Part shown: positions 3,338 to 47,549 of the stretch, in pieces
How the letters are laid out: every line of letters begins with the position of its first letter
Position numbering within the stretch: position 1 is the first letter of the stretch
Assembly (NCBI GenBank): GCA_039545335.1
Contig: BCIN01000006.1
Coordinates: 62,001 to 126,000 of the forward strand
Direction of reading: 5' to 3'
Origin: Kondoa subrosea
Lineage: Eukaryota
Length of the DNA stretch: 64,000 nt
Translations under genes and position numbers: made by a program
The notes under the pieces: model-generated
Told to the model about the DNA's origin: nothing
The model's input: the letters and a program-made list of their open reading frames with translations, nothing else
The model's database searches: none

Positions 3338-4902
3338 ATGGCTCTATCAGTCTACGATCAGCCATGAGCTTTCACTTTTGATCCTTTAGCTAAAACACCT
3401 ATTACTGAAACGGAAGCGCATTGCATACTTACCAGCAGTCCAAATGCTTTGAAACTGGTACAACTGGCCCAATCTGACCCCGCTGGAGTGCCTTTTATGG
3501 CTCACGTGCTCTTACAAAGAGGCTTTCTTGCCGCTGCTCAGAGAATGTTCAGAAATGCGCGTAAGTCACCCTTAAACGAGATACGCACTTGGGAGGCTGA
3601 ATTCGAGATACAGAGAAACGCCGATTCGCAGTAGATCAGGTTCCGCAAGTCTCTTTCGATCCGTCAATCGCTACGGATCTATTGAAGCATACTAGCGAAG
3701 AACTCGACCAATTCTCGTCAATCTGGGCCAACTTGAACAGACGATTTGTTGCACTACAGTACCTTGTAACCACCCAAATATCTCAGCAGAAAAGAGAACA
3801 ATACACAGCAATGCTTCAAGCTGATTTCGCTAGGATCCGTAACATGCTCAAGAAGCTGAATGACTTTATGGCGGAAGCGAATTGGCTTATTGGAGCAAAT
3901 GATTCCATTCAAGAAGGCTTTATGAATCCATCAGTACCGTTAGAAAGCAGAATTCAAGCCAATGTCCCATATTCTGCTAGTTCTGTTACTCCAAGTGAAT
4001 CGTCATCTGCCGAAAATGCTGCTGTTGCTCGCAGAGCACGCATTAGAGCTTGCTTACCGGCAGCTGGAGCGATCAATGCGTCTCAAGTACAGCGCTGTGA
4101 GCCAATTACCAAGCCTCCTATTTTGCATTTGCTCATTGATCAGACAGATGCAGACGGAACTATTGGTTATCCGCTCAATGTACAGCCATCAAGGGCCAGA
4201 GATAGCTCAAGCGCACCATCAGCTTCAAACGCTTCATCTTCTGCATCCTCTAGCTACTCTACAGCTGTTCAGATAGATCCAAGACAAGTCCCAATTCAGA
4301 ATTACTCGCAGTCTCAACCTTCCTTTGGCGCTCCTGCTCCTTCTACAAATGCGTATGCTGCTGTTCCTTCAACCAAAGCTCCCTCAGCTTCTCGTCCCGC
4401 AACTCAATCCAGTCAACAAGCTCGAGCAGCAGCTGAAAAGCCTTCTAGAAGTCCAACTCGATCTGGACCAAATCATCAGCCTATCGCTTCAAGTCCTCTT
4501 CGCAACGTTTCTTCCGCCCCTGTCTCTCCACGAAGCAAGTCAACTTCTCCTTCTGCTTCTGACCCAACTTTCGGTTTGCCTAATCAAGCTCCTTCTTCCG
4601 TTTCCGTACCTAGCAGCCCAAGCAAAAGCCCAAGCAAAAGACCAAGGCAATCAAGGGAATTTGACGAGGCTGGAAATTCCTTGATTGTTAGCAACGGAAG
4701 AGAAAGCGAACAAGATTCTTTAGAATTCTTCCGCAGTGGCACCCGTCTGCCTGTCAGCAGTATCTTTTCGAATCCTGGCGTTGTTGGAAACGGTGGTGGA
4801 TCAAAGAAGATTAAGATGACAGTAGACGATTTGGAACTGGAAGATGGAGAATGTGAAGATGATGATGAGATCATGTTCACTGGTTACAAAGCCAAAGCGT
4901 AA
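3338..4902 (+). CDS. Hypothetical protein: helical N-terminal part plus long Ser/Pro-rich disordered tail; start uncertain
   Basis: A GTAAGT...ACAG intron near 3561-3613 joins the 3449 ORF to the 406-aa ORF 3682-4902. The upstream ATG at 3338 is in frame but followed by TGA at 3365-3367; the next in-frame ATG is near 3497. Confidence 0.6.
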
Positions 4903-5489
4903 GGTGCATTACTCGAACTAATATTGCCGTTCTTATATTCAATATGATACAGGTCAAATATGCCATCGGTGCCAAGTTGAAGCATGAAAGATGGATAGAT
5001 AGGGGTATTCGGGCATTCAAGTGATCATTTATGTTGTTTCTGTGGGAAGTAAGATACCCTGTACATGGCATGGACTCGACAAGTATGTGAAACATTGGTA
5101 TCTAGCATTTGTGATAGCAGTATATATAGTATCCTACATTTTTGATTTGTATCTGGTTATTACTGAACAAAGCTTAAGGTATCTCTTTGATGATTGCTAT
5201 TGTCCTTTCTTGTGTCTTGACATCCTAACACCATTATTTGCGAAGACCGAACTGCAACATGAGCCATAAGATTACCATTTCTTTCTGTCTATCTGATCTT
5301 GAAGGATACAACTTGGTAAATAATTGAAACAAGCTCTAAGTGAACTGCAGGTAGCTTCAAACCAGCAAAGCATACACAAAGCCTCACCTTATCACTTCAA
5401 GCGAATACCATATTCCTTCAGTAAGCTCAATGTAGCTTATTCCTTCGCTTCGATTCTGCATCGCAAGTCTCTTCGCCTTCTTTCACTAC

Positions 5490-6839
5490 TCAATCATCAA
5501 ACAAGCTCATTCCAGCACCACCAAAATCCAGTTGCGCCAATTCATCTTTTATCGCTTGTCTAGCCAATGCATCCAATTCCTTAATCAGCATATTTGAGAT
5601 CTTCTGCTCTAGATCTATCAGCTCTGACTTGCAGTATCAACAACATATTACTGACCTTTAGCTTTGAATCACTCTTTGAAATGACTTCCACCAAAGCTGG
5701 ACTTAGAGCAGAAGAATTACTACTTGGATGTTGACCAGGTACAGCTAATGAATTTCCAGTTGATAGATTTGCAGAAGGTAAAGAAGTAGAAGAAGGTGAA
5801 GGAGCGTTTGATACAGAGGTGGAAGTGGAAGTCGCTAGTAGAGGTAAAGACAGACCGCCCAAGTATGTAAGGATTTTTGAGTAGATTTCGATGAGGATGT
5901 CGCAGAGCGAGAAGAGGCATTGAAAGTAATCTAGTTCGAAAGGCTGTGAAATAATGAGCAGAGCAAGTGATGAGGCGGAAGCAACTGACTATGTTCGGCC
6001 AGAAGAGAGAAGTCTGATCATCATTGCTATCTCGACCTGGTTCTGAGCCTGGATTACTGTTTCCAGTCGTGCTAGATCTAGCACGACCGCCTTTCGTCGA
6101 TCGAAGCAGTGATTTCTGCACTTTCGAATTAGCTTACAACTACAAAAGATATGTACCGACTGACCATTCTAGGTCTGAGCAAGTTCTCATCCGATAATTG
6201 ATCATACTCTTGACTCGTCAATAGCAACGCCTTGAGGAAATCATGCGGATTGGCAATATCCAACAATGGACCCAAGCTCAATCCTAGAACCATGAATCTA
6301 GTTGCTCTTCTTTGTAAAGCGATACTCGTGAATTGACCATTCATTCCGATTGCTGCTGAAGAAGAAGGAACGGCCATGTTTGGATTAGCTAGAGCAGGTT
6401 GATAGTAGGCTTCCAATTCTTGCTTTGACAATCTGATGGTGTTAAACCAATGTACTTGATCACCTTGATGAACCGCTTTCAGGTAATTCCAGCTCTGCAA
6501 TCTGCGTGATACAGCATTGCGTTGATTGTCGTGAGCTATTTGTAAAGATTGTGAAGGTAGATTAGGTAAAGAGGAAGCATTGCCATTCAAGCTTGACAAT
6601 AAGGCTGGTGTGCTAAGGCCTGATGATTCAAGTAAAGGGGTCCCAGGTAGCGCTTCGTGCGGTACGTCCAGATCAGAAGTAGAAGACATGGTATTACTTC
6701 TATTCAAGGCAGAAGAGAGCAGATTGCTTGATTTCCTTCGCGAAGGTCCACTGGGTCTTGATGATCCATCCATGGCGAAGTGAGATCTACGAGCGCTTGT
6801 AGGTGAAGGTGATGGTGAAAGAGAAGAATCTCTGCTCAT
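5490..6839 (-). CDS. Uncharacterised fungal protein (4 exons)
   Basis: ORF 6129-6839 (SWNYLKAVHQG..HWFNTIRL..RATRFMVLGLSLGPLLD) splices via GTCAG..AG introns to PFELDYFQCLFSLCDILIEIYSKI and KISNMLIKELDALARQAIKDEL, ending at TGA 5490-5492. Confidence 0.75.
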
Positions 6840-7013
6840 GGCGCTTGCAGGTGCGAGCTCAAGAAGTTGGAATGAAAGGCGCGAAGGTGTTTCGAAACAA
6901 CAATGCCAAACTAGCCAACTCTGCAGTCAGCAGCGCCTTCAGCTCTCACTGGGATATCTCAGCTGTTTTGCTGGTTTCCACTCCTACTGACAGCACCGCA
7001 AACGCTTCTAAGT

Positions 7014-7026
7014 GATAAGCCTTATC
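7014..7026. promoter_or_regulatory. Inverted GATAAG pair immediately upstream of the Zn2Cys6 gene
   Basis: gataagccttatc, followed by ggatt (CGG triplet at 7026-7028). Confidence 0.5.
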
Positions 7027-7031
7027 GGATT

Positions 7032-9909
7032 ATGTCTCAAGCTGGTGATATAGCCATCAATGCACTGGACGGATTACCGCATTTTAGAGCAACATCAAAG
7101 CGCTCAGCAGAACCACAAGCAAATGGCAATGGGCCGCGAAAGAAACCTCGAGCAAGACCTACCTTATCATGCTCCGAATGTGTGAGACGGCGACAGAAAT
7201 GCAGTCGTACAGTTCCATGCATCACCTGCGTATCCAGGGGATGTCCGGAGAAGTGTCATATTGACGAGCTGGAGCAGGATCAGCAGCCTCCGAACCCTTT
7301 CATTACCCATGAAGTACATGAAGCTTTGGCGGCAAGAGTTAGGTTACTGGAAGAGCGACTCGACAGTATGAACAGGATACCTGATGCGCAAATAAAGCAA
7401 CAGAACTCTACAGCCGATTTCGATGGGCTGGCCGATCCATTGCTCGCTTCACCTCGAGTCGCTTCCCCAATACGTACTCATACTGAAGCCAGGCTTGAAG
7501 ATAGTCAAGGACGTGAGCAAGCTGCCTTTTCACTGGAATCTCTCGCTTTGGCAGCAGCTGTAGCTACTCCATCCCCAAATCCGGCAGTTGCCCAAAATTC
7601 ATCTTCTCGTCTGCGACCTCTCTCAGCATTTGTACAACGAAGAGAAGCAAATATCAGATCAGCAGAAGTCGAACTGTGCTTGGCGCTCGTTCCAGACTGG
7701 ACTTTCGCGAAAGAGCTAGTACAAGCGTACTTTGATAGAGCAGCTTGGGAGAATCATGTGAGCTTTGTACACTTATTTTCCTTAATTGCATAGCTCATTC
7801 CCATCGCAGGTCATTGAACAAACGACTTTTGAGATTGCCTTCAATCAATTCCAGCACAAAATGCTCGCAGATCCCTCTACAGAAGACATCGATTTCGCTT
7901 GGTTGGCATTATATTTCATGATCCTAGCTTCTGCTCTCTTCTTCTCGCCTACCATGTGGGATCTACGACAACAGCAGAGATCTGAATTAATCAACAGCTG
8001 GCTTTTGGGCGCACATAGAGCTATGGCTTTGAGCAACTATAAAGACGCACCTTCTGTCTCTGCTATTCAAGCTATTCTACTTAGTACGTTCTGCAGGCAA
8101 GTGATTATAGCAAAGCTAAAACAGAAGTAAAATCAGTGCCTCATTTCCTTATGCACTGTGAGCCCGTTGATTGTAATGCAGAACAAGGTTTCCTGCTGAC
8201 AGACTGGATCAGCTGGGCAAATACAAAGATGGGCGATCTGTCTCTCCTCTGGTTTAAGAATGGCACATCTACTGGATCTACACGAAGCAACGCCAAGGCA
8301 CGAGTAGGTTCTTTGATTTCAAAGCATCTATTCGTCTGGTCTCACTTGGTTTCGTAGAATCACTCAAGAAGTAGAGACCGGTCGAAGATTGTACAGCGCT
8401 CTGATTAATGCGGAAATCAACTTCACTGGCAGATGGCTCGGTTTGGGTTTTTCTGAATTCGCTTTTTGTGCATTACTTTTCCATCGCTAAAACTAAATTC
8501 ATAAACTCATTCGCTTTTCTTCCAGCCTCAACTCATAACATACCTATGAATTGCGATAATCTCAACGCACTTCGATCTTTGTCGATGGACATTCCTACAG
8601 TCGCCTCTTTCCAAGTCATTATGGCCCGTATATCGGAAAAAGATGTGGAGTGGAGGCGTACAGGAGGACAAGCTGGCGGAAAGAACGACTATGAGATAGT
8701 TCTCAAGTTCGAGTAAGTTCCGCTACTGCAGCTTTAATTCAGCTTTGATTTTGTCATTGTAACAGCCGGGTCATTGAAAAGCTCAGAGATGACTTACCTC
8801 TTTACTTCCGGTGAAGCCTTTCATCGTGCATGTACAATCGGCAAGCTGATTACAGGACATAGCATTGAGCATTCTGAAGATCTAGCAGTCCAAGCCTTGA
8901 CCAAAGATCGATCTTATCTTATCTGGCAACGGTGTTTGATCCTGATGGCTTTGAACAACAGGCTGATGCGGTCGCATCGACACTGGCTGACAGACGGCTA
9001 CGTAAATATTTCTTGTGGTATATCAACACTGAAGCTGATGGATATATGTAGCGCAACGCAAAGTACTCGTTTTCCACCGACTTATGTCTGAAAGTGAGGC
9101 AGTCCGTGATCTAATGATCACCGTAGCTGAATTCACCTTATTTAAGGCGGCGAAGGCGAATCTGGCGTGTCAACGAGCTCTTCGAAATTCTTTTGGTGCA
9201 GCCGATCTAGTAAGTCAGACTAACGATTGTATATATAGTTGCTGAGACTCTACTCTAGCTTTACCACAGCATCTTATGTTCTTTATCCAGCGCGATTGTT
9301 CTGCTTGTGGACAATTTTGTACGCATCACAACATTGGATGCGCCAGCTTCACCGCAGCTAGATCTACAGCGTTTGGAGGTTCTCGATGTCCTGGCGTCAT
9401 TTCGGCTGCTGCCAACACCTAGCACAATGGCCGATTCCGCTGCGAACGTTTTGATCCGGTTATTAGAGGAAGAGGCGGATCGACGACAGAAGAGGAACAT
9501 CCCATGTCCACCGAACCTGCAAATCCCCGCCTCTGGCGGAACTTTACAAGCAGAGAATAGATCTCTTCTTGAAGTCATTCGGACAATCTTTTCTCATTCT
9601 CAATTTCCTTCCCTCTCAAAAGTATCAGCGCCTTCTGTGTGCTTCGATCATCTACCTACCACGGACAAATCACCGACATTCTATCCCAACCTGTTCACAA
9701 ATCCGGAAATGCCTTCTGGTATTAGTGACGACTTCTTGCAGCAATTTGGAACTGCACAAGACTTTCCCCTCGGTCAGAGCTTCACTTATGGCTCGATGCC
9801 TGATGACGCAGGTCCCGGACTTGATTTTCAAAGTTTGGGTATGCATGTTGTTGCTGCCCCTTGCATGAACGCTGAGCAATTCAACCAAACAGGTTTCGGA
9901 TTCTTTTAA
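7032..9909 (+). CDS. Zn(II)2Cys6 transcription factor with fungal-specific middle homology region
   Basis: CSECVRRRQKCSRTVPCITCVSRGCPEKC matches C-x2-C-x6-C-x5-C-x2-C-x6-C. It is followed by a coiled coil (LAARVRLLEERL), MHR-type exons (ELVQAYFDRAAW; WLALYFMILASAL) and an acidic C-terminus ending 9909. Confidence 0.93.
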
Positions 9910-9980
9910 GGTCACAAAGAATAGGTGTATAACAACGAATTGGAAATGATGTAGGCAGATACAGGATGTAATTATCAAAA

Positions 9981-11850
9981 TTAATGCCCAAACCCATTTA
10001 TCCCATTCGTTCTGCTTGCTTCCTTTTTCGGAACATCACTTGACATCGCTTGTATGGCTGATAGGTGCTTCGTGAAACCAGCCTGCAGGTCATCCCATTT
10101 GGTCTCGTCCTCGTCTTGAAATCCTAAATTAGTAGTGCAAGTCTGCCTAATGAGAGCAGCTTACCTATCAATACACCGCTACGCTGTAGTGACCAATCTG
10201 TCAGGGTCATTTGTACTCCTATATGTAACATAAATCCTGGACAGTAGATGTTAACAGCAACTTTGCATGACTTGAAAGTAAAACTTACCAATCGTGTCTT
10301 CACCGATTCGAATACTTTCCAACGGACTTTCCGTAGCTTGAAGGAAAGTCTCATAAGTCTCGCCATGACTCATCATACCGTTGGTGAATTGCAAGGAGCC
10401 AGGAGCCATGCCATGAAAGTTAGATCCGCGTATAACACCTAAGAGTTCGGTGGACATATTGCGATGATAGTAAGGTGGACTATATTTCTTGCATCAGCTC
10501 AAGTAGGGAGTGGTCAATAAACATTGAGTAAGCGTACCGAAATGTATTGGTACTGGTGCACCATCGCGGTGTAAAGGCGCAGAAGTCGGTCAAGCTCTTG
10601 CCGGGAATTTTGGATTTTGCGGTGAGGACGCAATAGATAGTAGGATCTACTTGCTCCTTGTCCGAAGTACCCAAGTTAACGAACTTCTCCAGGTCATACT
10701 TGTATGGACAATAGCTGTGGATTCAATTGGCACGGTTGGTGCCGCAAGCATGCAGAACTTACTTGCCATGCCAAGCAACGACGTCGAAAGGTGTATGATT
10801 CTGTTTGCAGGAGAAGAAGCGTCCACAAAGCTTGTACACAACTGGAGAAACAGCTCGAGCTGAGTTCGCAGCAGAGAGACGAGTCGAACTTACTTTCCCA
10901 CTCCGTCTCGTCCACATCGAAGCTTGCCAGAGGACTTTCAAAGTCCCTTTGTAATGCCATTCCATTAGTACCAACAGGTCCAAGTTCGCTCAGCTCATAA
11001 TGTTGACCGAAAAGTTCCTGGATATCTGTAAGGCAATCGTGTGAGCATACAATTCTTCGGATCAAGAGCGGAATGACAAAACCAACATCCGCGAACAGGT
11101 CCATCGGGTAGAAGCACTCTGAAGCGAATACCTCTGGGCACAACACAGATTTCGCCTGGCTTGACCATTAGCTTGCCGAGTTCCGTTTGAATGTCCAGTC
11201 GGCCTAGTTGTGGCAAAATGAGCATGTCGCCATCATTACTGCAGAAGGCTCGATTTTGCATCGATGCATTGGCGGTATAGATATGTATTGCTAAACCCTC
11301 ATGTTGCATGGAGTCGCCATTTCCAGCAATAGTCTTGATGCCTTGTACGAAATCAGTCGAGCCTGAATCTTCGGGCAGCAAGAAAGGTTGCCAAGATGTT
11401 TCCGATGCGACAACCGAGACATATGGATTGCAAGTGTTAAAGTTGGATTCGACATCGGCATTGACAGGCATAGCCTTGAGAGGCTTGTGGGCGACAGATG
11501 GTCGAATGCTGCAATAGAGTCAGTGTGAAAGTGGCAAAGTGTAAGAAGCACGAACCGATACATCCAAACATTCTGCATCTCGCTTCGTGAACAGACAAAG
11601 GCAGATCCATTGATTTGTTCAGGATACAGATCATAGGCTAATTTCTGAGGTGTATTTCTAGCCAAAGGTAAAACTCCTGGTCTGCATTTGTAGATTAACG
11701 ACGAATAGCAACCTCTTTCATGACTCACAGAGCTTCAGAAGCGAACCGATTTCCAAATCCAACTTGGTAAGAATACGAGTCTTGAGGTGTGGCAGCAGTT
11801 GCAAACGGTCCAGAAGCGTTTGCGCCAATGAATTTCTTTTGCCCTTTCAT
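9981..11850 (-). CDS. Homogentisate 1,2-dioxygenase-family protein (divergent paralog)
   Basis: Spliced protein has YQVGFGNRFASEAL, LYPEQINGSAF, NDGDMLILPQLG, PFDVVAWHGNY, FRPPYYHRNMSTE and MSHGE. Fe ligands His/Glu/His are present. ATG 11850, TAA 9981-9983. Confidence 0.92.
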
Positions 11851-11954
11851 CTTCAAGCAGTTCTGTCACTGACTGGAGACGACTCTGAGGAGACAACAGG
11901 TCTCTTGGCAACTGAGGAGCATATCGTAAGTCCGAAGCCAACCAAATGATCGAT

Positions 11955-12008
11955 GATAAGATAGGAATTCCGAAATTCAGCCCTATTCGAGGAGCCGCGC
12001 ATGATAAG
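11955..12008. promoter_or_regulatory. GATAAG sites plus CCGAAAT in the bidirectional dioxygenase/permease promoter
   Basis: GATAAG at 11955 and 12003; CCGAAAT at 11970. Confidence 0.55.
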
Positions 12009-12122
12009 GCCTGTATCGGAACTCCTTCAACCTCTCCCCCCCGCGTTGAACCTCTCTTTTCTGTCCTTCTTTCAAACTACTTACTCCCCCTTCCCCAATT
12101 CATCGAGTCATCACGCTTCCAC

Positions 12123-14166
12123 ATGTCTGACTTGGAAAAGGCTGATAGCATCTCGGATGCTGCACACACACATGTCCTTGCATCTCAAGACACAAGCGAA
12201 GATATCGTTTTGCCTTTGAAGTGGCATCGTAAGCTGCTCATCTCTTTCTCTCCCGCATAGCTAATTCATCAAATCCTCAGAGCGCCTAGCAAGGCTTGGT
12301 GTAGAAGCACACGGTATTACACCTGTACCGGAAGAAGCCAGAACAGATACTGGTTACTTCAAGCTGTTCACTTTGGTAAGATAACATCCTTCCTTCGCTT
12401 GTAATGAACACATCTGATTATGTACACAGTGGTTCAGCTTGAGTACCAATCTGTTGCCCTTGGTGACTGGTCATCTTTCGACTGCCGTCTACGGACTGTC
12501 ACTTCGCGATGCTTCTTGTGAGTCCAGATCTTTGCTTGCAGACAGCATCGACCTGATAAGCATCTTGCAATTTAGTGACAATTATCTTCTTCACCATACT
12601 ATGTACTATCCCTCCAGCTTGTACGTTGAATACTTACCATCTGTGGTGCGATGCCTCAAAGTTTGCTTCTTCAGGGGCAACAACTCTTGGACCAAAGCAT
12701 GGCATGCGCCAAATGATCTTCTCTAGATATTCCTTCGGATTGGTTGGTGTCGCTGTTCCGGCTGTGTTGAATGCTCTCACATTGTTTGGAGTAAGTGACT
12801 TCTGATCGGTAGGAGGTAATGTAGCTAAAGAACCCAATAGTGGGGAGTTGTTTCTTGCATCCTTGCTGGACAGACACTTGCTACTGTCTCTGATGGAAGC
12901 TTGAGCTGGACTGTCGGTATCGTGTAAGATCGTTCCCTGTCAGTCTTGTCGACGCTTATTTCCCGAACGAGAACAGCATTGTCGCCGTCCTCGCTATGGT
13001 CGTTGCTTTCTTCGGTTATCGAGTGCTTCATATTCTCGAACAAGCCTCGGTCGTTTGCGCTCTTATTGCAATCCTTACACTTTGCGCAGCTGGTGGATCG
13101 CATTTGGCCGATCGGGCAGTCACCGAACAAGCAACCTCTTATCCTGTTCTATCCTTTGGTGGTATCTTGGCTGGCTTCTGTGAGTAGAGATACATACAAT
13201 TGCGACCGTTCTTGCCGATTAATGTCTTGGTCATACAGTGATCACTTGGACTGCAATTGCATCAGACTATACGACTTACTACGTATATGATGCTCCATCT
13301 CAGCGCCTCTTTTGGTATCAATACCTTGGTCTTGGTATTCCGACAACGCTCTTCATGATTCTGGGTGCAGCAATTGGGTCGGCCATCACTACATCCGAAT
13401 CATGGACAGCAGGCTACGAAGCGAATGGAATTCCTGGGGTACTTCGAGGTTAGTATCTTGGTTTGACAGTTCTACATTCACAAGTTGAAGACATTCTCTG
13501 ACAGAAATGCTGCGTGGCGCTGGAGGCTGGGGCTCATTCTGCACTATCCTGCTAGCGCTATCCCTATTGGGCAATCTATCAGCAACCATATACTCCCTTG
13601 GCTTCTCGGTACAAATTGCAATTCCTCCTCTTCGAAAAATACCTCGATACGTCTTCATTGTCTTCGCCAGCGCTTGCGTCATCCCTGTAGCGATTGTTGG
13701 TGCCAAGAGATTCTTTGTTGCTCTAGAATCATTCGTGAGTGAACTATCGCTTCAAAAGAATTTTCAGATGCTCATTATGCTGCCCCATCCAGCTCGGTGT
13801 CGTCGGATACTGGAGTGCAGGCTACGTAGCTATTGTAGCAATGGAGCACGTTGTGTTCCGCAGAAACCGCATCGCCAACTACGATCTTTCCGCTTGGAAC
13901 ACGGCTTCCAGTCTCACTAGTGGCATCCCAGCCGTTGCAGCATTCATCTGCTCTTGGGGTCTAATCGTTCCTGTGCGTACTTTTGTACCCTCGTCTTACT
14001 TCTTTCCTCTGATATTTGCTATTGTTAGTCTATGGCCGCTGTTTGGTTCGAAGGACCCATCGGAGGTGCAATCGGCGATTTTGGCTTCGAGGCTGGGGCC
14101 ATCATTTCTGCTCTGATGTATCTTCCTTTCCGATGGATCGAAATCAATAAGTTTGGGCGAAAGTGA
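12123..14166 (+). CDS. NCS1 purine-cytosine permease family transporter (Fcy2/Tpn1-like)
   Basis: RLGVEAHGITPVPEEARTD, GPKHGMRQMIFSRYSFG, WTAIASDYTTY and GDFGFEAG motifs; many hydrophobic segments across GT-AG-bounded exons; stop TGA 14164-14166. Confidence 0.9.
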
Positions 14167-14408
14167 TGTGCGAATACAGGGGTTTCTTCTGTTGGGTTTC
14201 TAATGTCGGGTTTAGATATGTTACTTAGAAGAATTGATGTAGACTGTATTGCAAAGAGCTCTTGTTGTATTTCCTCCTTTGCTGCTTTTGGTCATGAATG
14301 AAAGATCCTACTTCGCTGCCTTTGTTTGCTGCCTTTGTTTGAGGGTCAGGATCAAAGATCATCGAAACTTGTGACCAATGCAATTGTTTCATTGCATGTC
14401 AAATGCCT

Positions 14409-16684
14409 CTATTTTTTTAGGGACTTAGTAAATCTTTCTTCTCTTCGTAAGCGCCAGCTCATTCCTCTCTTCCACAGTATGTAAAGGACCGGACTGAATG
14501 CTACCAGAAGCTGAAAGTCCGCTCAGAAGAATGCCAGATGTGCTCGTGGACTTCACTCACTAGTCCCCATATTGTAAATGTCCAACCTGGGCCAAGTTTC
14601 CTAATCATCAAATCGATAACAGCTAAAAGAAAGCGTGAGTAACAACCAGGGTCCTGTCACTGAAACGGACCCAGACCAACAGCTCCCATGACACAGCGAA
14701 CCAGATTCACAGCAGCGGAAGATGTAGCGCTAGCTTGGGGATATAGATCGATGACAAGGACGTTGGTGACTGTCTGTAAGCAGAAGCCAGCCATACCAAT
14801 GCTGGGTCAGGTTGATCAGCGTCTTCGACTTCAATTCAAGCATCATCGCACTTACATGAATTGAAGAATTAGAGGTCCAGCTATATTCGTATGTGCTTTC
14901 ATACACCAGCCGTTGCCAATAAGAGCTCCAACATAAAGTGGAAGAAGCCAAAAACAGCAGCGAAGCCGGGCATGCTGTGCTTGCAAATTCAGGGAAAAGA
15001 TGAGACAACCTTTTGCCAAATCCTCACCTCTATAGGAAACCCTCGAAGATCATTTGCATCTTTTGGATTGAATCGAGCTTTCATCAATATCTCAAAATCT
15101 TCGCCTGTTATCATTGCTCTTTTCCGCATTTGCTTTCGCTTCACGATTTGAAAATCGCGATCGACTACTCGGCTCATAATGATAGATCCTAGCAATAATG
15201 TCTTCATCACAGATCGAGTGAAAAGCAACTCCATAAATACCTGCCAAGGCTCCGCTACCTATTGCGAGAAAACATAGACCAATTTCCGTTTGACTATACC
15301 CATAGATATCGTCCAGCAGGGCAGACAAAGATCCAGTAACGCAATAGTACGCAGTGTAAATGATGCCATTATAGAAGAGAAGCATAGCCATATCGAGCTC
15401 AAAAAGCATCAGCAAAGGCTTCAGAGGATGGATGTTGCGCAATCTTTTATCGCTTTTGGCCGGTACTCTTGTGTCACTGGCTTTGTTCGATATTGCTTCC
15501 TGTATTAGGCGCCACAGAGGTTTGTGTATTGGGGAAACAGGAAGCTGTCCTTGTAATCAGATCCAGTGCAACAAAGCTACCTAATGCTAGCTTACGGAGC
15601 CATTTCCTGCTATTGAGCGCAGCGTTTCAGGTAAGAAGAGTAGTATCGCTATAATACATGGTCCAGCCAAAATTGAGAGAAACCAGAAGACTATCAGACG
15701 GATCGAAAGTCAAACGGTGCTGATACTTTCAGGAGGATCACAAACTCCAATGCCATCCCAAATGACCGCTGATCAAACCACCGAACTGATCTTCGCATGA
15801 GCATCTTTTCTGATCCAAAATTGACATTATCAACGCACTAGAGGACCGATTGCTGGTCCAAGCTGGACTCCCATTTGGAAGCAAGATACAAAGAGTCCTC
15901 TTTCATCCCTATGACATTCAAAAAAGCTTGCCCGTGAGCGAATGGAGTGGCAACTGAAGCGGTTCTTGACATACGGCGTGGATATATCAGCTATCGTCCC
16001 TGCTCCCAATGCAATTGTTGAAGCCGAACCGGTAGCTTGAAAGATCCGAAGAAGCATAAGAGCCCAATATACGTTGACCAGACCGACTAAGCCATATGAG
16101 AAGGCATAAACTCGAGGGAACAGGAATTATTCAAGAGGACTCAACTTACGGCCGATGTTGCTGGCCAGGTATATGCTGAGGGTGACAAGATCTATATGAT
16201 TGTTGAGTGGGATCATAACGAGACACATGTCAGCCTTACATATAACTCTTCTGCCATACACATCCGCGACTATACAGGTTCTCCATAAGAGAATCCGTAT
16301 CAAGGGAATTTTGCCTTACGACTTCCCCATAATGAAGGACTGACGCCTTGGAAGACCAGGTAGATAGTGACTGTGAGATTGATTTGCTCCGTTGTTCTGC
16401 CTAGTGAGGATGCGATTTCCGGTATTGCAGGAAAGTACTGAGAGATGAAGTACAGTGAGCATACATTCACTTTGCTCTAGCAAAGAACTGACAATGTTGC
16501 TATTGAGTGGAGAGAAGAAACCAGCGACAGAAATCAATGCAACTAAGAACCGCTTCTCCTTCGCAGAGTAGATTGTATACGGCGGCTGCACAGAGGACGG
16601 CTTTTTGGCGATGGCAGAACCTTCCAGGTCGGATTCTGCTCTGATACTTGGGCCATTCACGGTTTGGACCTCATTCTTCGACAT
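14409..16684 (-). CDS. MFS DHA1 drug:H+ antiporter (Qdr/Aqr1-like)
   Basis: PYTIYSAKEKRFLVALISVAGFFSPLNSNI, ADVYGRR (motif A), LLRIFQATGSASTIALGAGTIADI, GPAIGP, LPETLRSIAGNGS. ATG 16684, TAG 14409-14411. Confidence 0.9.
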
Positions 16685-16801
16685 CAATCATGGACTCTTG
16701 TCAAAGAGCAGTCACAGTAGGATAGCGAGGGATGAAACGTTTGCTTTAGCAGTGTCTGGCGCATCTACATAGGGTATAGGACGAATGCAAGGAAATCCGA
16801 T

Positions 16802-16850
16802 CCGAGATTCGGCAAGAACGGCTGTGTCTGATCAAGAGAGATAAGATAAG
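16802..16850. promoter_or_regulatory. CCGAGAT plus tandem GATAAG upstream of the DHA1 transporter
   Basis: CCGAGAT at 16802; GATAAGATAAG at 16840-16850. Confidence 0.55.
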
Positions 16851-16963
16851 ATCGCCATGCGGAAAGGACTGAAACAAGTCAAGTGCAAGGTAATGCAGCC
16901 AGTGAGTCGATTCATAGCGAAGGCAGGGAGTGAACAGGTCATTGATATTGGCTACGCGAAAGT

Positions 16964-18151
16964 TTACTCATACAATGCGTGCTGCAACGCTTTGAAAGCA
17001 TCCTTCAACATCCGCCTACTGAGTTCCGATATCGCAGGTAAAAGCATAAGGGAATGCGTTCCTCCTTCATAGGTTCTCAGATCAACTTGTATCATGTTCC
17101 CCTTCAGTCGATCGGCATAGGCAATAGCTTCATCTCGGAGTATATCGAGTTCTCCAGCAGCGATGTAAGCTGGTGCCACGTTTTGCATGAGCTGATCTGG
17201 TGCCAGTAGAGGCGAAGCTTGCCAGTTTACCGCATCTTCTGGGTTCGGCAAATACTTTTCTCGATACCATGTCATTCGATCAGGAGTGAGCCAAGCTAGC
17301 AGTAAGATAAGGTCAGATCGAGTAGACGAGATAGAAGCTTTGCTTACGAGCTGTTGCAGCATTGCCCTTCCAATGAGTTTCGACAGTCGCTGTGTTGTCC
17401 AAAACAGGCAGAAAGAGCATTTGCAGAGAAAGATGTATAGGCGGATGCAATTGAGCTGCTTTCAGTGCAACTACAGCAGCTAGATTGCCGCCTCTGAGTG
17501 ACACAAATTTAGCTGACAGTCTTGGTAGGCAAGCTTGTTCTGGCTTACGCCGATAATCCACCCACAGCAACCTTGCGCTTGTCAGTCTTCAATTGAGCTG
17601 ATCCTTCACTGTGTATCCAAAACAGCACTTCCATTGCATCGTCTACTGGTGCAGGATAAGGGTTCTCGGGTGATAGACGATAATCGACTGATATCACGAC
17701 ACATGGTGTGTCTATCTAATCATGAGGAGAGATTCAGACGCTGAAAGAAGGACTTACCTCTACATGCTCTGCTACAGAATGAAGCTTCATCTTCAGGTTT
17801 TGACAAAGTCCACTGAAAAGCTGAAAGTTAGCCTACTTCACAGAAAGTCAGATTACCACTCACGCCTCCTCCGTGAAAGTATAGCAACACAGGCCAACCG
17901 AATTCAGGACGGTCACCTTTCGGTATCCAACATAGCGCTCGACATTGCGAGAAGACGATCTCACGCTCTTCGCCTACTTCAACAGCTGGATCGTTTCCTT
18001 GCATCGGCGGAAACTTCCTGAGTTCTGGCGACCAAGGAACCAATTGACTTGGGACTTTGTTTTGTAAGAATCTTTCATGAAAGTCGCGATAGTCGGGATC
18101 AATTCTGGACAGTACTGCTGGATGCAAAAGCTGATGGATAGGCATTGCCAT
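16964..18151 (-). CDS. Alpha/beta hydrolase, hormone-sensitive-lipase (GDXG) family
   Basis: LLYFHGGGW oxyanion motif, VDYRLSPENPYP, GGLSAGGNLA nucleophile elbow (spliced), GELDILRDE (Asp) and YEGGTH (His). No signal peptide. Confidence 0.9.
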
Positions 18152-18193
18152 GATTGCTGCGAGGAATTTGAGACGCAATCGATGCAAGACAAG

Positions 18194-18244
18194 CTTATCA
18201 AGCTTATCAGGAAAATGCCCCTGTTGTCCTCGGACGCCCGAGAT
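18194..18244. promoter_or_regulatory. Two CTTATC sites plus CCGAGAT in the bidirectional hydrolase/P450 promoter
   Basis: CTTATC at 18194 and 18203; CCGAGAT at 18238. Confidence 0.55.
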
Positions 18245-18302
18245 GTAGTCTTGGAAGAGCAGATATATCCATGTTTGCTGCTCTATACCATCCTTCCTCA
18301 TC

Positions 18303-20527
18303 ATGGAGTCTTCCGTTCTTGCGCTCCTTGCTTTATTGGCTCTTGTTTCTGTTGGTTTCTTGCTTGCAACCTTCAAGAAGCCTCCGCATCCACTGCCGCC
18401 TTCTCCTGGAGGCGCTCTACCTTTCCTGGGTCATCTAAATGTCGTCCCTTCAGATTCGCCAGAGGTCAGCCCGGATGCTCGTTGAGAAGTATGAGTGATT
18501 GCTGAAATTATGCTTTGGCAGGTATACTATGAGAAGATTGGCAAAGAGATGAAGACAGATGTGCTGTACTTCAACATCCTTGGTCAACCGATGGTTGTCC
18601 TGAATAGCGTTCAGGCAGCTGTTGACCTACTTGAGTAAGGGTGTCGTTGATCATCACTAGTGCTTTGGGCTGATCCTATCTTCCCAGTACGCGAGGATCC
18701 AACTATGCAGATAGACCAGGCTTCGACCTGCTGAAGACTCTCGGATTCCAAGTACGCTTCTAGCTGGAGCCACACATACGGGAAGCGATCTGATGTTCTT
18801 CCCAGAATACTCTGACCTTCCTTCGTGTTGGTCCACATTTCCAGCTACATCGTAAAACCCTTCAGACCTACTTCACAAAACCATCTATCGTCGGCTTTCG
18901 AGACATACAGACTACAGAAGCGAGAGCTTTAGTGAAGAATCTGTTACAGTTCCCTGCCGAGTTCAACCATTACATCCGGAGAGCTGCAACAAGCGTCGTC
19001 ATGACCGTTTCCTTCGGACATACAGTCAAATCAGACGAAGATCCTTACATACAAATCGCAAATGACACAGCCTACGCCCTAGTGGGTGTTTCTCGACTCT
19101 CTCAATTCTTCAACTTACGCAGATACCTTAGGGTAACAGTGGAGCGCCTGCGGGCACTCTGTAAGTCTTTGTGGTAATAACCTACACGCGTTTGCTCAAA
19201 TCCTAAATCCAGGATTGACTTCTTCCCCGCAAGTAAGCTGCTTGTACCAGGACTCAGCGACTAAATTGCTCACATGAATGTACTAGTCGGGAAGTTGCCC
19301 AACTGGTTGATGTTCGATAAACATGTCCGCTTTGCAAGAAAATGGCGATGGGCGATGAGGAAACTCTTCGACGTTGTGCGTTCCGTTGGCTCATACACAC
19401 TCAAAAACCCTTGATTGATGATTCTATATGTAGCCTTTCGCACAAGTCAGAGATCAAATGCGGCATGGAACAGCTGAACCTTCTTTCCTACACACTTTGC
19501 TAGAAAGGCATGCTGCGGAAACTCAAAAGGGCAAACACATTGATTTCACATTGGAAGACATCAAGGGTGCTGCTGGAGGTACGGAAACACCGCCCTCGAT
19601 CTTCTTGCTATCGGCTCAATATGTGAAATAGCCGTATACGTTGCTGGACAGGAGTAAGTTGGCAAAGTATGGTCTGCCGGTCTGATCTTGATGATGACAA
19701 AGTACTACACATGCTACAATGATGGTCTGCTTGTTAAACCTTACGCTCAACCCAGAAGTGGTCAAAAAGGCTCAAGCAGAAATTGATGCTGTGGTTGGTA
19801 CAGATCGCCTAGTACGGCTTTTCTCACACATTCGTCTACTCAAGCTAAAAATCTCGGTGTAGCCTGAATTCAGCGACCGAGAATACATGCCATACAGTAA
19901 CTGGATTATCGCCGAAACGCTTCGTTATTACCCAGTGTCGCCCCTTGGTGTACCACACAAATCGATTGAAGACGACGTATACAAGGGAATGTTCATTCCA
20001 AAAGGGTCCTACATCTATGCCAATGCTCTGTACGTGCATATCATTATCCGCATGGATATTGTAATAACCAATCATAGGGCAATGGCTCACGATGAGAACG
20101 TCTATAAAGACCCGATGCACTTCAATCCTCAGAGATTCGCGTCTGTTGCAGAGGGAGGAAACTGCGAACCTCTGCCTTCAGGTCAATTTGGTTTTGGCAG
20201 GCGAGTATGTGTAGGAAGGCATCTAGCGGAAGCAGTAAGCTCCTGATGGAGCGTTATCACACCAATTCTCATTCGCCGATACAGACCATCTGGATCTTCT
20301 TGGTGTCGATTCTAGCAGTTTTGGATGTGAAGAAAGCTATCGATGAGGACGGGAACGAGATTACTCCAGAAATAGCATTTACTCCAGGCCTATCCAGGTG
20401 AGGCTGACCCTTGAGAGCTTTCCCAGATCAAGCTGATGTGCCCGAAAGTCATCCGAAGAAGTTTGGTTGTAGGCTGGTCCCGCGATCTAAGCATGCAGAA
20501 GAGATGCTTTTACAGGCTAGCTTATAA
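18303..20527 (+). CDS. Membrane-anchored cytochrome P450 (OrdA/CYP64-clan-like)
   Basis: N-terminal TM anchor plus PPSP hinge, I-helix AGQ(D)TT, K-helix ETLR, FNPQRF, heme motif FGFGRRVCVG; stop TAA 20525-20527. Confidence 0.93.
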
Positions 20528-20639
20528 ATCTCGGGAAGTCCTCTAAAGCAGCTGTAATATATGCATATCATACCGCGGTCGCTCGAGATTTCGGATTTCC
20601 GATTCAATCTCCACATTCTGCTTATTCGACCTGCTTATC
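20528..20639. promoter_or_regulatory. Two AT(C/T)TCGG sites plus CTTATC upstream of the amidohydrolase
   Basis: ATCTCGG at 20528, ATTTCGG at 20588, CTTATC at 20634. Confidence 0.5.
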
Positions 20640-20690
20640 AGCACGCACGACTTGTGACACTCAGTAATTGCCTTCAAACAGATTGCAGGA

Positions 20691-21620
20691 ATGGCTATCA
20701 CTCATGCAGAACAAGAGAGTTATCTTCAATCAGGCTTCGGGAACAAGATGGGATGGGGGGATCGGCCAGCTCTGCTATTGATCGATGTCTGCAAAGCATA
20801 CTGGCAGCAAGGATCCCCTCTAGATCTGTCAGCTAATACGGAAGCTGTGAGAGCACCGGATGAAATGAGGAAATTGGTCGCTGCAGCAAGAGCTGGTCAA
20901 TGTCCTGTATTGCATTCTCAAGTGTCGTATACCTCTCCTACTATGCAAGACGCCGGACTATTTTGGGTCGGTGATGTAGTCTTCAACTGCCTTAGATCTG
21001 ACGGGTGGTGAACAGAGAAAGAGCAAAGTCTTGGATGTATGGCAAAAAGGCGACAAGCGAGGCTTAGCAGAACCAATGCCTGGGCTTGCTCCGGAAGGTT
21101 TGTTTCCGCTATTGTGTCGCTGTTTCATCGTAGTTGCTGACATTCCGTCAAGGCTCTGACCCAGTTGTAATCAAGAAGTATGCAAGCGCTTTCTTCGGCA
21201 GTGAGTCTTTGACGAAGCTTGCCGTTGCTGTTCTTGGACAAATTCTGTATAGCTGATCTTGCTACAACCTTACACGTACTTGATGTCGAGTAAGCTATCT
21301 TTATGGAGTTCTTACTTGCAACAGAGCGGAACCCATTCTTTTGCCAGTACTGTCGTTCTGTGCGGCGTATCTACCTCAGGATGTGTCCGAGCGACAACTT
21401 TGGATGCTATGCAGAGTGGATTTCGACCCATGGTAGTTGGTGCAGCATGCGGGGATAGATCACCTGAAATACAGAATGCCAATCTTTTCGAGTGAGTGAA
21501 CATAGTCCGAGGGATACTACTAGCTTCCAACTGATGTGCAACAGCTTGAACAGCAAATATGCTGATGTAGTTTCAACGGAAGAAGCGTGCGAGAAATTGA
21601 GAGCTGGATGGAAGCATTGA
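20691..21620 (+). CDS. Isochorismatase-family cysteine amidohydrolase, maleamate amidohydrolase (NicF)-like
   Basis: Spliced protein: MGWGDRPALLLIDV (Asp), KKYASAFFGT (Lys), LCGVSTSGCVRAT (Cys), ACGDRS..ANLFDLNSKYADVV. Five GT-AG introns; TGA 21618-21620. Confidence 0.88.
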
Positions 21621-22026: not shown

Positions 22027-23879
22027 TTAAGCCTTCTTTCCATTGACAACCTTCTTCGCAGCTACTGCAGCAGCATTCCCACTCTTCCCATTTACAACCA
22101 CATTCGCGTTCGCATTCGTTGCCAAACTCGCATTTGCACCCTCAATTTTGATCAAACTCCCATCTTTCAAACCCAACACTTCATCAAATGGAACTTTAGG
22201 TAAAGGTACTAAGCGACTCATGTTGCTTCCAACTACTTCTTTAACTTTTTTAGCACTTTCAATAGCTTCAGGTGGGAAAAAGTTTGGTCTTGGTTTAGGT
22301 TTAGGTTTCAAGCCTTGCTGTTGTTGCTGTTGAAGAAGAGTTGGGTTAGGTACTTGATTATTTTGTATGGGAAGCGTTTTAGGAAGAGCTTGAGGAGGAA
22401 GTGGTTTAGGCATTACTTGAGGCTGAGCTTGAGATTGAGCAGGTGGTTTGATAGGGATATCAACTACTGGATTTGAGAGAGGAAGAGTCTTAGCAGCTGA
22501 TCTTGCTGGTTGTGTTCTGGTTGCTGGTGTTGCATTACTCGGGACAGGGGCTGTTATCGGTTTGACTTGTACAGGAGCAGCTACCTTAGTGGGTGCTCTG
22601 CCAGGAGAAACTGCAGAAGGGTTGGTAATAGTTTTAGCTTGAGTGGATGGAAGACTAATCGTAGGTTTCGCTGCGGCAGGCGTAGCAGGTTGAGAAGCAG
22701 TAGGAGTAGCAGTTTTGCTGTTTGCTGCAGATACAGCTCCAGGTTTATTCACTACTGCAGGTGAATCTGGTTTCAACCGTTTCGCGTCTGGTTCTTCTGT
22801 AGTAGCTTGCTCGGCAGGTCTCTTCTTGTTTGGCAAGGGTCTACCAGAAATGATATGTAAAGCGTTGCGAATCATATTTGCTATTCTTCTATCGAATGAC
22901 AAGGCGAATTTAGCTTCTAGCATATGATGAGCTGATCCGGCCGGTTTGACGGGAGAGAAGATGAGTTTGCTGATACTGTTTGCTTCTATCGTTCGAGCTG
23001 CTTCATCTTCTTTAGCACGTTGAGCTGCAAGTTTGGCTTCTGCTTCTAGTTCTGCTGCAGTTTTAGGAATGACTGGTTCTTTCTTTTCTTTCTTGACCGT
23101 TCTATGTATCATATGAGCTACAGTATCAAGAACAGGACAAGCAACACACTTCTTTCGTTTAGGTGCAGCTGCAGGCGAGTTATCGATCACCCAATAACCA
23201 CCTTGAGTATCCGTATTTTCATCTCTCTTGAAACAAGGTTTATCGGCAAGATTACTCTTGACAGCGGTCTACTCGGATAGAGTCAATATCGTGTAATAGA
23301 TACAGAGGTTCGCCCTACCTTCCAAGATTCATCTTCCCATTTGTAATAGCTGAACTTGTTTGCGATGTTAGTAAGCAATTCAGAGAGATGGATTCTCCGA
23401 TCAGGATGGTCAGCGATAGCAGCTCTGATGATTGTTCTCCAATGATACTGCATGAGTAATATAGGTAAGCACGACAAGCAGTCAATTGAGGGTGAGCCAT
23501 AACGGACGTTCGGTTTTCCACCATCAGGAGGTGAATGCAGAGCAGCCAGACTTCCATTCTTCTCTACAGGCTGTTCTCTGCCTTTGCCTTTTGCGCCGTC
23601 ACTAGTTTGAGAGACTATAGCAGGTCTATTTTGTTTCGCATTGCCTTTCCCTTTAGTCGCTGGTGCTGCTGTAGCTGGAGCAGTCACTACAGGCAGCTTC
23701 GACGTGGACGCAACAGGTATTGATGGTACTGCTGCTGCTACTGGAGGCAGGTCTTCCGTTTCGTTGACATCTTCGAGCAAACCCAAGATTGGCAGAATGA
23801 CTGGATCCTCCTCTCCTTGCACCAAATCGGGCACTGCGCTGAGCATGGATTGTAGTGAAGCAAGCACATCTTGCTCCAT
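22027..23879 (-). CDS. Forkhead-domain protein with Pro/Ala/Gln-rich C-terminus
   Basis: KP..WRTIIRAAIADHPDRRIHLSELLTNIANKFSYYK..SWK|TAVKSNLADKPCFKR..GGYWVI is a divergent winged-helix/forkhead fold. PolyQ tract near 22310-22332. Confidence 0.75.
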
Positions 23880-24221
23880 ATCTCAGATTGCCAAAGGTAT
23901 ACTCCAGATGGATGTTGCAAGTCAAGCCAGAGATTTATGCATTTTCATGTCTTGACCGTGGACTGTGACTGCTATGCTCGATACGACGCTGCTTGCGACG
24001 ACTGCAGCCTGGCTACCAAGGCAAAGCCCTGAGATTCAAAGTCTGCGCTTACCCACTTGCGTCTGCCCTAAATTAGTGCCTCGCTCTCTTCGTTTAGCCT
24101 GTACTGGGCACTGCTTTCTCTTGTTCTTCCCAAACAGACAAGCTCTTGCTCTGACTCTCGATCTCTGTTGTGTCCATCTATCTTTGTGGAACAGCAGCTT
24201 TGATCAAAGATTGACTGCGTC

Positions 24222-45593: not shown

Positions 45594-45807
45594 AGGAGTT
45601 GATTGTATGGTTTTGCTTTGTTGGTATATTGTAATGGAATTACTCTCTGAACATCAGAATTGCTCAATGCTTATTGTTACTAAGTCCCAAGCAGGCAGAT
45701 CGCTTTGTCAGACTTCTTTCGGCTTGTCAAAGCACAATGTAACTGAAAGGTCATCGGGAAAGACGTGCAGCAAGATGTGATTGCAATGCCTGTAATACGT
45801 TACAGAA

Positions 45808-47336: not shown

Positions 47337-47549
47337 GGCTGACAATGATGATCAGTTTACTTGATGCGATGCTCTTGTGTGCGTGTTCCAGATAGGTTGT
47401 ACAAGGGCATAATCATTTCAGCCAGCATTCAGGCTATTCGACATTCGAAGGATAGTTTTCGGAAGATATTCCATGTTCTAGGCACCGAGCAATCCTTTGG
47501 CTGTGTATCTCTTTGCAGGTACAGTCCAATCCGTTCGCCGCATACGGCC

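Follow-up and report, generated by a model that had tools for sequence, protein, structure and literature searches.

A conserved and rearranged fungal gene cluster around a homogentisate dioxygenase-family enzyme with an altered lid, possibly for the nitrogen-regulated catabolism of an aromatic or heteroaromatic compound

A 64,000-nucleotide stretch of Kondoa subrosea DNA (GenBank assembly GCA_039545335.1, contig BCIN01000006.1, positions 62,001 to 126,000; hereafter the window) carries, at window positions 7032 to 21620, a conserved fungal metabolic gene cluster that is rearranged between genomes. The cluster is built around a dioxygenase of the homogentisate dioxygenase (HGD) family, which by its sequence has the fold and iron site of the family and is not an ordinary homogentisate enzyme. 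The promoters of the cluster are rich in GATAAG sites. The reading that we favor, with a probability slightly better than even, is that the cluster serves the nitrogen-regulated catabolism of an imported N-containing aromatic or heteroaromatic compound.

Results

Gene content of the cluster and its recurrence in other fungi

The window is eukaryotic, with short introns of ~40 to 60 nt. Gene models were predicted by a dynamic program on splice sites and coding signal and then refined against homologues, and Pfam profiles were searched on exon-sized open reading frames (ORFs) between 6.9 and 21.7 kb. Outside the cluster, the Pfam scan covered most ORFs of at least 130 amino acid residues and did not extend to shorter exons; statements below on families missing from the window refer to these scanned ORFs. 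Seven intron-rich genes fill 7032 to 21620, which in the predicted models are the start codon of the transcription factor (TF) gene and the stop codon of the amidohydrolase gene, respectively. An earlier note, made from the letters of this DNA, had placed a seven-gene cluster between the same limits; all seven families were recovered there by Pfam on exon-sized ORFs, with Zn_clus, Transp_cyt_pur, and MFS_1 below their cut-offs, and the order and strands of the matches agree with that note. The genes encode a Zn2Cys6-type TF (7032–9909, plus strand, ~831 amino acid residues, seven exons, the middle ones uncertain), an HGD-family dioxygenase (9981–11850, minus strand, 487 residues, nine exons, HgmA_N and HgmA_C), an NCS1 permease of the putative purine-cytosine (Fcy/CodB-like) kind (12123–14166, plus strand, ~10 exons, Transp_cyt_pur), an MFS transporter (14501–16684, minus strand, ~11 exons, 3' end uncertain, MFS_1 on one exon), an HSL-family α/β hydrolase (16964–18151, or to 18304 if the first Met is used, minus strand, five exons, Abhydrolase_3), a cytochrome P450 (18303–20527, plus strand, ~524 residues, 12 exons, p450), and an isochorismatase-family cysteine amidohydrolase (hereafter ISO; 20691–21620, plus strand, 220 residues, six exons, Isochorismatase). 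The spacers are 71, 272, 334, 279, 151, and 163 bp long in the predicted models. Five of them (71–279 bp) agree with the 70 to 280 bp given earlier, and the MFS-side spacer of 334 bp, a value that depends on the uncertain 3' end of the MFS gene, does not. The two bidirectional promoters described previously are also present in the models, between the HGD and NCS1 genes (11851–12122) and between the hydrolase and P450 genes (18152–18302).

An alignment of 51 amidase relatives was used to scan metagenome contigs, and 80 loci were kept, namely, 8 fungal loci, in which the match is broken by introns, and 72 bacterial loci. The seven predicted window proteins were compared with all 80 loci using tblastn. 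Three of the eight fungal loci extend more than ~2.4 kb on either side, and all three (L001, L003, and L004) contain cluster partners; the other five, 1.3 to 3.3 kb long, are too short for neighbors. L004 holds all seven families within ~14 kb: the dioxygenase (4191–5816, minus strand), P450 (6525–7963, plus), hydrolase (8564–9609, minus), ISO (10001–10761, plus), MFS transporter (11462–12917, plus), and NCS1 permease (13200–14838, minus), all located by tblastn, and a Zn2Cys6/Fungal_trans regulator, which adjoins the dioxygenase gene and was detected by Pfam. At least five families are present in L001, namely, ISO, MFS (minus), NCS1 (plus), dioxygenase (minus), and P450 (plus), after which the fetched DNA ends. 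In L003, ISO lies next to NCS1, where the contig ends; in L001 and L004, an MFS gene sits between the two. Of the 72 bacterial loci, only L040 gave a partner match at E ≤ 1e-5, a single weak one to MFS.

Identities to the window proteins by tblastn were 52–63% for the dioxygenase, 44–59% for the P450, 38–57% for the hydrolase, 52–71% for ISO, and 36–48% for NCS1; the MFS proteins of L001 and L004 are 24–32% identical to that of the window over long stretches and up to 53% in short ones. In a reverse search, all 11 ORFs from L001 and L004 matched only inside 7032–21620 of the 64-kb window, although a second P450 lies at 45 kb. None of L001, L003, and L004 has the gene order and orientation of the window. 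Shared membership with shuffled order is what a metabolic cluster under selection usually shows, and the recurrence in three loci excludes a chance neighborhood. The earlier proposal of a true cluster is therefore upheld: its families are linked elsewhere, seven of them in L004, five in L001, and two in L003. The intron density of the window is far above that of L001 and L004.

The dioxygenase keeps its iron ligands and lacks the lid tyrosine

The exons of the window dioxygenase matched HgmA_N (E 3.5e-43) and HgmA_C (E 3.5e-12 and 7.3e-11), and its nearest database proteins share 59–63% identity over the full length. The best solved relative is 9pz4, followed by the human and Pseudomonas putida HGDs. 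The motifs PPYYHRN, MSTE, and SHG align with the iron ligands (His/Glu/His) of 1ey2 and 3zds, and the ligand positions are kept. By contrast, the lid segment RGSNFHG (10410–10430, minus strand) is three residues shorter than its counterpart in relatives, and the Tyr found as Y350 in the human enzyme and Y346 in that of P. putida is missing: the window reads RGS, a three-residue gap, and then NFHG, against G-x-Y-G-G in the relatives. Of 120 aligned rows, 103 have Tyr at this position, 11 have Trp, and 1 has His; it is unreadable in 4 and deleted in the window. The segment lies within one exon, and thus the deletion is not a splicing artifact. The solved 9pz4 likewise has no lid Tyr. Trp replaces Tyr in a subclade comprising P0059–P0061, P0065, P0095, P0098, P0104, P0105, P0115, P0119, and the L004 copy (L004:4191-5816).

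A phylogenetic tree of 120 rows was constructed using FastTree, with 3 of 120 hits dropped for length and the window protein entered as a 453-residue model. The window, L001, and L004 copies share one clade of 35 rows (support 100), and a separate clade of 85 rows is mostly basidiomycete. Inside the 35-row clade, L001-type sequences keep the lid Tyr and the 11-row subclade that includes L004 has Trp; the branch of the window protein is 0.51 long, compared with a median of 0.1. The surroundings of the third iron ligand read HGE or HGV in both of these clades, as opposed to HGPD in the human and bacterial enzymes, and Aspergillus nidulans HmgA is presumably of the HGPD type. With the NCBIfam hmgA equivalog model, the L001 counterpart, a partial ORF, scored 403.6 against a cut-off of 510.75, this score being for that counterpart and not for the window copy. 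A search with the catalytic exon returned two proteins (52–53% identity), which is weak evidence of rarity given the word filter of the search.

A review of white-rot fungi describes the lid Tyr as binding the carboxylate of homogentisate (PMC11634970). It also describes two HGD-like enzymes of Phanerochaete chrysosporium, PcMHQD1 and PcMHQD2, which both favor methoxyhydroquinone, and PcMHQD2, with Phe at the lid position, does not convert homogentisate (PMC11634970). HGD-like enzymes that cleave methoxyhydroquinone, among them one inactive on homogentisate with its lid Tyr replaced, are on record (PMC11634970, PMC12420386), and a comparative study reports several HGD clades without an assigned function in Pezizomycotina (PMC12420386). 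Our literature search found no structure paper on HGD-like enzymes. The window protein, with its lid Tyr lost through a three-residue deletion and its iron ligands kept, is thus predicted to differ from an ordinary homogentisate enzyme, as the earlier note had supposed.

ISO belongs to the N-carbamoylsarcosine/maleamate amidase subgroup

ISO contains the Asp-Lys-Cys triad, with D in LLLIDVC, K in VVIKKYASAFFGT, and C in VSTSGCVRA, and the corresponding columns (D37, K132, and C165) are invariant in the 51 aligned relatives. According to PMC5806882, this triad is that of metal-free cysteine hydrolases, among which the amidase subgroup has as substrates small amides and ureides that arise when heterocycles are broken down. 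For the comparison with solved structures, we used as query a full-length fungal ISO relative that is 66% identical to the first exon of the window gene. This protein scored 118.7 and 117.5 bits against two N-carbamoylsarcosine amidases, compared with 102.2 and 99.8 bits against the maleamate amidases NicF and Ami, respectively, and 56 bits against RutB. The solved relatives include the maleamate amidases 3ot4/3uao, which we take to be NicF, and 4l07, which we take to be Ami. The identity of 3uao as NicF is stated in PMC5806882. ISO is a member of the N-carbamoylsarcosine/maleamate amidase subgroup, slightly nearer to the N-carbamoylsarcosine amidases. The earlier description of a NicF-like amidase is therefore apt as regards the subgroup and the triad, and less so as regards the scores, which are better against N-carbamoylsarcosine amidases.

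Bacterial neighborhoods of the amidase relatives were read in 33 loci. Hydantoinase A/B genes are present in 9 of the 33, and a further nine carry a family-III CoA transferase, an HMG-CoA-lyase-like gene, or both. A nic-like setting was found in four loci, all with an FAD monooxygenase and three of them also with a maleate-isomerase-family gene. The loci in which amidase relatives recur beside hydantoinase A/B include L005, L006, L012, L029, L031, L033, L040, L041, and L071, among others. Genes often close by in this recurring operon are those of a family-III CoA transferase, an HMG-CoA-lyase-like protein, a PEP-mutase/isocitrate-lyase-family protein, or an aconitase.

The amidase tree has 90 rows, consisting of the window, 15 of ~50 fungal relatives, two metagenome proteins, and the 72 bacterial loci. 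It excludes the eight fungal loci with introns, and the context of L056 is labeled by analogy only. The fungal amidases are monophyletic (100), and their sister (92, inside a set supported at 98) is an 11-row bacterial clade with three hydantoinase-linked loci. The four nic-like loci fall elsewhere. Gene contexts are spread widely across the tree, which therefore gives no indication of the substrate. NCBIfam gave no equivalog-level match for the amidase, the hydrolase, or the P450. One database protein of 943 residues (P0161) consists of a Fungal_trans regulator joined to an ISO relative, probably two adjacent genes fused by annotation, and its regulator part has no similarity to the window.

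The promoters are enriched in GATAAG

A k-mer comparison of the five 5' regions of the cluster brought up CTTATCA. The sites are GATAAG at 7014 and 7021 in the TF 5' region (6927–7031), which is shared with a minus-strand neighbor; GATAAG at 11955 and 12003 in the HGD/NCS1 divergent promoter (11851–12122); GATAAG at 16840 and 16845 in the MFS 5' region (16685–16963); CTTATC at 18194 and 18203 in the hydrolase/P450 divergent promoter (18152–18302); and CTTATC at 20634 in the ISO 5' region (20528–20690). Each region thus has one or two sites, often as close pairs. The nine sites in 970 bp compare with 0.46 expected from the rest of the window, which corresponds to an ~20-fold enrichment (Poisson 1.7e-9) for a motif chosen post hoc. 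The two 3' spacers lack the motif, and neither GATAG nor any of five control hexamers was enriched in the five 5' regions. For L001 and L004, the motif was fixed beforehand: four of the six GATAAG sites in L001 (P 1e-4) and four of the eight in L004 (P 0.003) lie no more than 450 bp upstream of a gene of the cluster. The AreA/NIT2 nitrogen regulators recognize HGATAR. The enrichment points to nitrogen control of the cluster, which would act through a GATA factor, and lends the nitrogen link of the earlier note new support from three genomic loci (window, L001, and L004).

A second motif, CCGA[AG]AT, occurs at 11970 in the HGD/NCS1 promoter, at 20528 and 20588 in the ISO 5' region, and, as CCGAGAT, at 16802 in the MFS 5' region and 18238 in the hydrolase/P450 promoter. 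These are 5 of its 17 occurrences in the window, falling in four of the five promoters, against 0.18 expected, again post hoc. The motif is only a lead, a candidate site of the Zn2Cys6 regulator encoded in the cluster.

Regulator, carriers, hydrolase, and P450

The window TF scored 18.3 bits against the Zn_clus cut-off of 21, and the six-Cys pattern CX2CX6CX5CX2C..C is visible in its translation. Pfam gave no Fungal_trans match in this gene, in contrast to the L004 regulator, which has both a Zn cluster and Fungal_trans, and the similarity between the two proteins is confined to the Zn cluster. The idea of a conserved cluster regulator was dropped, since the regulator part of P0161 is unlike the window TF and the L004 regulator resembles it in the Zn cluster only.

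An exon of the NCS1 gene reached 22.7 bits against the Transp_cyt_pur cut-off of 23.5, and its L001 counterpart (48% identical) reached 39.5 bits and also matched TIGR00800 at 2.2e-18. An atlas look-up gave the purine-cytosine permease family as a lead. The carrier is thus assigned to NCS1 from the profile matches and, on the atlas lead, putatively to the purine-cytosine kind. One exon of the MFS gene scored 29.8 bits against the MFS_1 cut-off of 33.4, and its motifs are presumably DHA1-like.

The hydrolase has the motifs HGGG and G-L-S-A-G (GxSxG). Its start is likely the Met at 18151, since the L004 counterpart aligns only downstream of this residue. In NCBIfam, it resembles LipP1/HSL-type proteins below the cut-offs, and its solved relatives are generic HSL-type esterases only. 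The deformylase function suggested earlier finds no backing here, as neither NCBIfam nor the solved relatives tie this generic HSL-type esterase to deformylases. The predicted P450 has an N-terminal membrane anchor and the heme motif FGFGRRVCVG with its Cys. Its nearest database representative, 45.6% identical, is labeled only "cytochrome P450", and neither the representative search nor the cluster look-up gave it a functional name.

Genes around the cluster

No FAA_hydrolase or GST match was obtained by Pfam in the cluster or its flanks within the scope given above, which agrees with the earlier statement that fumarylacetoacetase and maleylacetoacetate isomerase are absent. The Pfam tables of the window likewise contain no NicX-type dioxygenase, NicD-type deformylase, or maleate isomerase among the scanned ORFs. 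A backbone synthase of secondary metabolism was not found in the cluster or flanks either; we therefore read the cluster as not biosynthetic and rejected a secondary-metabolite cluster.

The flanking genes, encoding a forkhead protein, GH32, dynamin, a HECT ligase, a KH protein, and RPB2, are unrelated to the cluster. Its right border is a forkhead-domain gene (22027–23882, minus strand), followed by a GH32 glycosidase fragment (24449–24988, plus strand). The gene for RPB2, the second-largest subunit of RNA polymerase II (domains 1–6), lies at 50429–53962 (minus strand) and is a standard phylogenetic marker. The second P450, a fragment at 45078–45593 (plus strand), adjoins two Beta-lactamase-family ORFs (46791–47351, minus strand; 47352–48059, plus strand), and the three (45078–48059) may be another small metabolic group.

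Discussion

The families, catalytic residues, and promoter sites of the cluster lead us to propose the following order of steps. A nitrogen-containing compound would be taken up by the purine-cytosine-type NCS1 carrier and hydroxylated by the P450 to a para-dihydroxy ring, which may be hydroquinone-like or hydroxypyridone-like. The HGD-family dioxygenase, with its Fe(II) site kept and its carboxylate-gripping lid Tyr gone, would open this ring beside one hydroxyl, and the carbon beside the cut would become an acyl derivative, which may be an ester, an N-formyl compound, or an amide. Its dismantling would fall to the HSL-type hydrolase and the cysteine amidohydrolase, the latter freeing ammonium. 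Pathway-specific induction would be due to the Zn2Cys6 protein and nitrogen repression to a GATA factor that binds the numerous GATAAG sites, and the MFS carrier may be a second importer or may export an acid. Two versions would suit the ureide leaning of the amidase, namely, a hydroxypyrimidinone opened to a ureido acid and an amino-hydroquinone opened to an amide.

Several observations weigh against this proposal of nitrogen-regulated catabolism. The long branch of the dioxygenase could reflect relaxed constraint rather than a new function, and since the L001 copy keeps the lid Tyr, its loss does not characterize the cluster in general. The MFS transporter and the TF are common to the loci at the family level alone. 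GATAAG was picked post hoc in the window, and GATA sites are also used by other GATA factors. Finally, a dioxygenase paired with an esterase also suits an N-free route from methoxyhydroquinone.

A narrower form of the proposal is a convergent eukaryotic maleamate-like route, in which the HGD-family enzyme would open an aza-hydroquinone (2,5-dihydroxypyridine or a P450-made hydroxypyrimidinone), and the HSL-type hydrolase and cysteine amidohydrolase would strip the formyl and the amide or ureido nitrogen under AreA-type control. Its parts would be unrelated to the bacterial ring-opening enzyme. We consider this form unlikely. The maleamate route proper, a special case in which a hydroxypyridine is converted through 2,5-dihydroxypyridine, N-formylmaleamate, and maleamate to maleate and ammonium, is what the earlier note had put forward. 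Its three chemical steps match the three enzymes present one-to-one, and it is established chemistry that the HGD family, like 2,5-dihydroxypyridine dioxygenase, cuts para-diols beside a hydroxyl. The solved relatives of the amidase include maleamate amidases (3ot4/3uao and 4l07), and 4 of the 33 bacterial amidase loci are nic-like, with an FAD monooxygenase and, in three, a maleate-isomerase-family gene. On the other hand, the amidase relative scores higher against N-carbamoylsarcosine amidases, its bacterial sister clade is hydantoinase-linked while the nic-like loci lie elsewhere in the tree, no maleate isomerase is present among the scanned ORFs, the hydrolase is of another α/β subfamily than the one to which we take NicD to belong, and literature searches turned up no pyridine-accepting HGD-family enzyme. 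The maleamate pathway, with 2,5-dihydroxypyridine, N-formylmaleamate, and maleamate as hypothetical intermediates, stands as one possible chemistry and is in our judgment rather unlikely.

The earlier note had overlooked a rival logic for the dioxygenase and hydrolase, that of the methoxyhydroquinone-cleaving HGD-like enzymes with a neighboring esterase. In an N-free route for a lignin-derived methoxy- or otherwise substituted hydroquinone, as with Aspergillus niger mhdA and omeA, the hydrolase would split a methyl ester formed by the dioxygenase, and the amidase and NCS1 carrier would serve something else. In A. niger, cleavage of methoxyhydroquinone gives a methyl ester that is split by the esterase OmeA, encoded next door, and mhdA and this neighboring carboxylesterase gene are co-induced and both required on vanillate (PMC8336404). 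The P. chrysosporium enzymes likewise favor methoxyhydroquinone (PMC11634970), and the best solved relative, 9pz4, also has no lid Tyr. Nevertheless, we regard this route as quite improbable: the amidase and NCS1 genes remain linked to the dioxygenase in L001 and L004, and ISO is adjacent to NCS1 in L003; the GATAAG enrichment points to nitrogen control; and a vanillate-hydroxylase-type flavoprotein was not found nearby among the scanned ORFs. A combination of P450, esterase, amidase, MFS, and Zn2Cys6 genes is also the common make-up of fungal detoxification clusters, such as the Fusarium benzoxazolinone loci, and the MFS_1 match would fit a cluster that modifies and expels a xenobiotic or natural product through the MFS carrier instead of using it as a nutrient. 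A ring-cleaving dioxygenase and an ammonia-releasing amidase imply mineralization, however, the GATA sites suit nutrient control, and no backbone synthase is encoded in the scanned ORFs, which makes detoxification or tailoring very improbable. Hardly credible, in our view, is ordinary tyrosine or phenylacetate breakdown via homogentisate, or a chance neighborhood of unrelated genes. The dioxygenase does belong by Pfam to the family of homogentisate dioxygenase, and Aspergillus P450s make homogentisate from phenylacetate, but the lid Tyr is deleted, the scanned ORFs include neither a fumarylacetoacetase nor an isomerase, and the clade of the protein is distinct from sequences similar to the human and bacterial enzymes near the third iron ligand; chance is excluded by the conservation in L001, L003, and L004.

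To our knowledge, eukaryotic ring-opening routes for N-heterocycles are almost undescribed, with the Aspergillus hxn pathway as the one worked-out case, and of the several clades of the fungal HGD family we know of only two activities that have been assigned. Full-text literature searches, leaving aside the supplementary trees of PMC8336404 and PMC12420386, turned up no description of this gene combination or of a fungal maleamate route. We thus describe a fungal catabolic cluster around an HGD-family ring-cleaving enzyme for which we found no earlier account. One HGD clade without an assigned activity is now tied to defined, conserved partner genes and to nitrogen control, and the role of the extra HGD paralogues can be tested through the six co-inherited genes and through candidate inducers and regulatory sites. 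Should the substrate be a pyridine, a pyrimidine, or an arylamine, the cluster would represent a new eukaryotic catabolic route and a source of enzymes for bioremediation or biocatalysis.

Among known systems, mhdA-omeA of A. niger is the nearest published precedent for the dioxygenase and hydrolase logic of the cluster. Both mhdA-omeA and PcMHQD1/2 employ an HGD-family paralogue for a para-diol other than homogentisate, PcMHQD has an altered lid Tyr in a member that does not turn over homogentisate, and in mhdA-omeA a hydrolase encoded nearby handles the acyl derivative from ring opening. The cluster differs from both systems in adding the cysteine amidohydrolase, NCS1 carrier, P450, MFS carrier, regulator, and GATA sites, and in that its dioxygenase apparently belongs to another subclade ("HGE-type"). 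The canonical hmgA/fahA/maiA set shares the dioxygenase fold and iron ligands with the cluster enzyme, which lacks the lid Tyr, falls in another clade, and has none of the partner enzymes of that set beside it among the scanned ORFs.

The bacterial maleamate pathways (nic/pic/hpo genes for 2,5-dihydroxypyridine dioxygenase, N-formylmaleamate deformylase, maleamate amidase, and maleate isomerase) follow the logic that is proposed here for the cluster, namely, cleavage of a para-diol, an α/β hydrolase, and an isochorismatase-family amidase that frees ammonium, and their amidases NicF and Ami belong to the same subgroup as ISO. In contrast to the bacterial maleamate pathway, the cluster has a dioxygenase of an unrelated family and a hydrolase of the HSL type, and neither an isomerase nor a flavin or molybdenum hydroxylase is present among the scanned ORFs. 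The hxn route is not known to involve dioxygenolytic ring cleavage. The A. nidulans hxn genes, according to published accounts, resemble the cluster in being a fungal, clustered system of N-heterocycle catabolism with a pathway-specific regulator, and they are under AreA control. Their route is reported to be unlike the bacterial ones and to include a 2,5-dihydroxypyridine hydroxylase, HxnV. The enzymes of hxn and of the cluster are entirely different, and no hxn family is represented among the seven genes.

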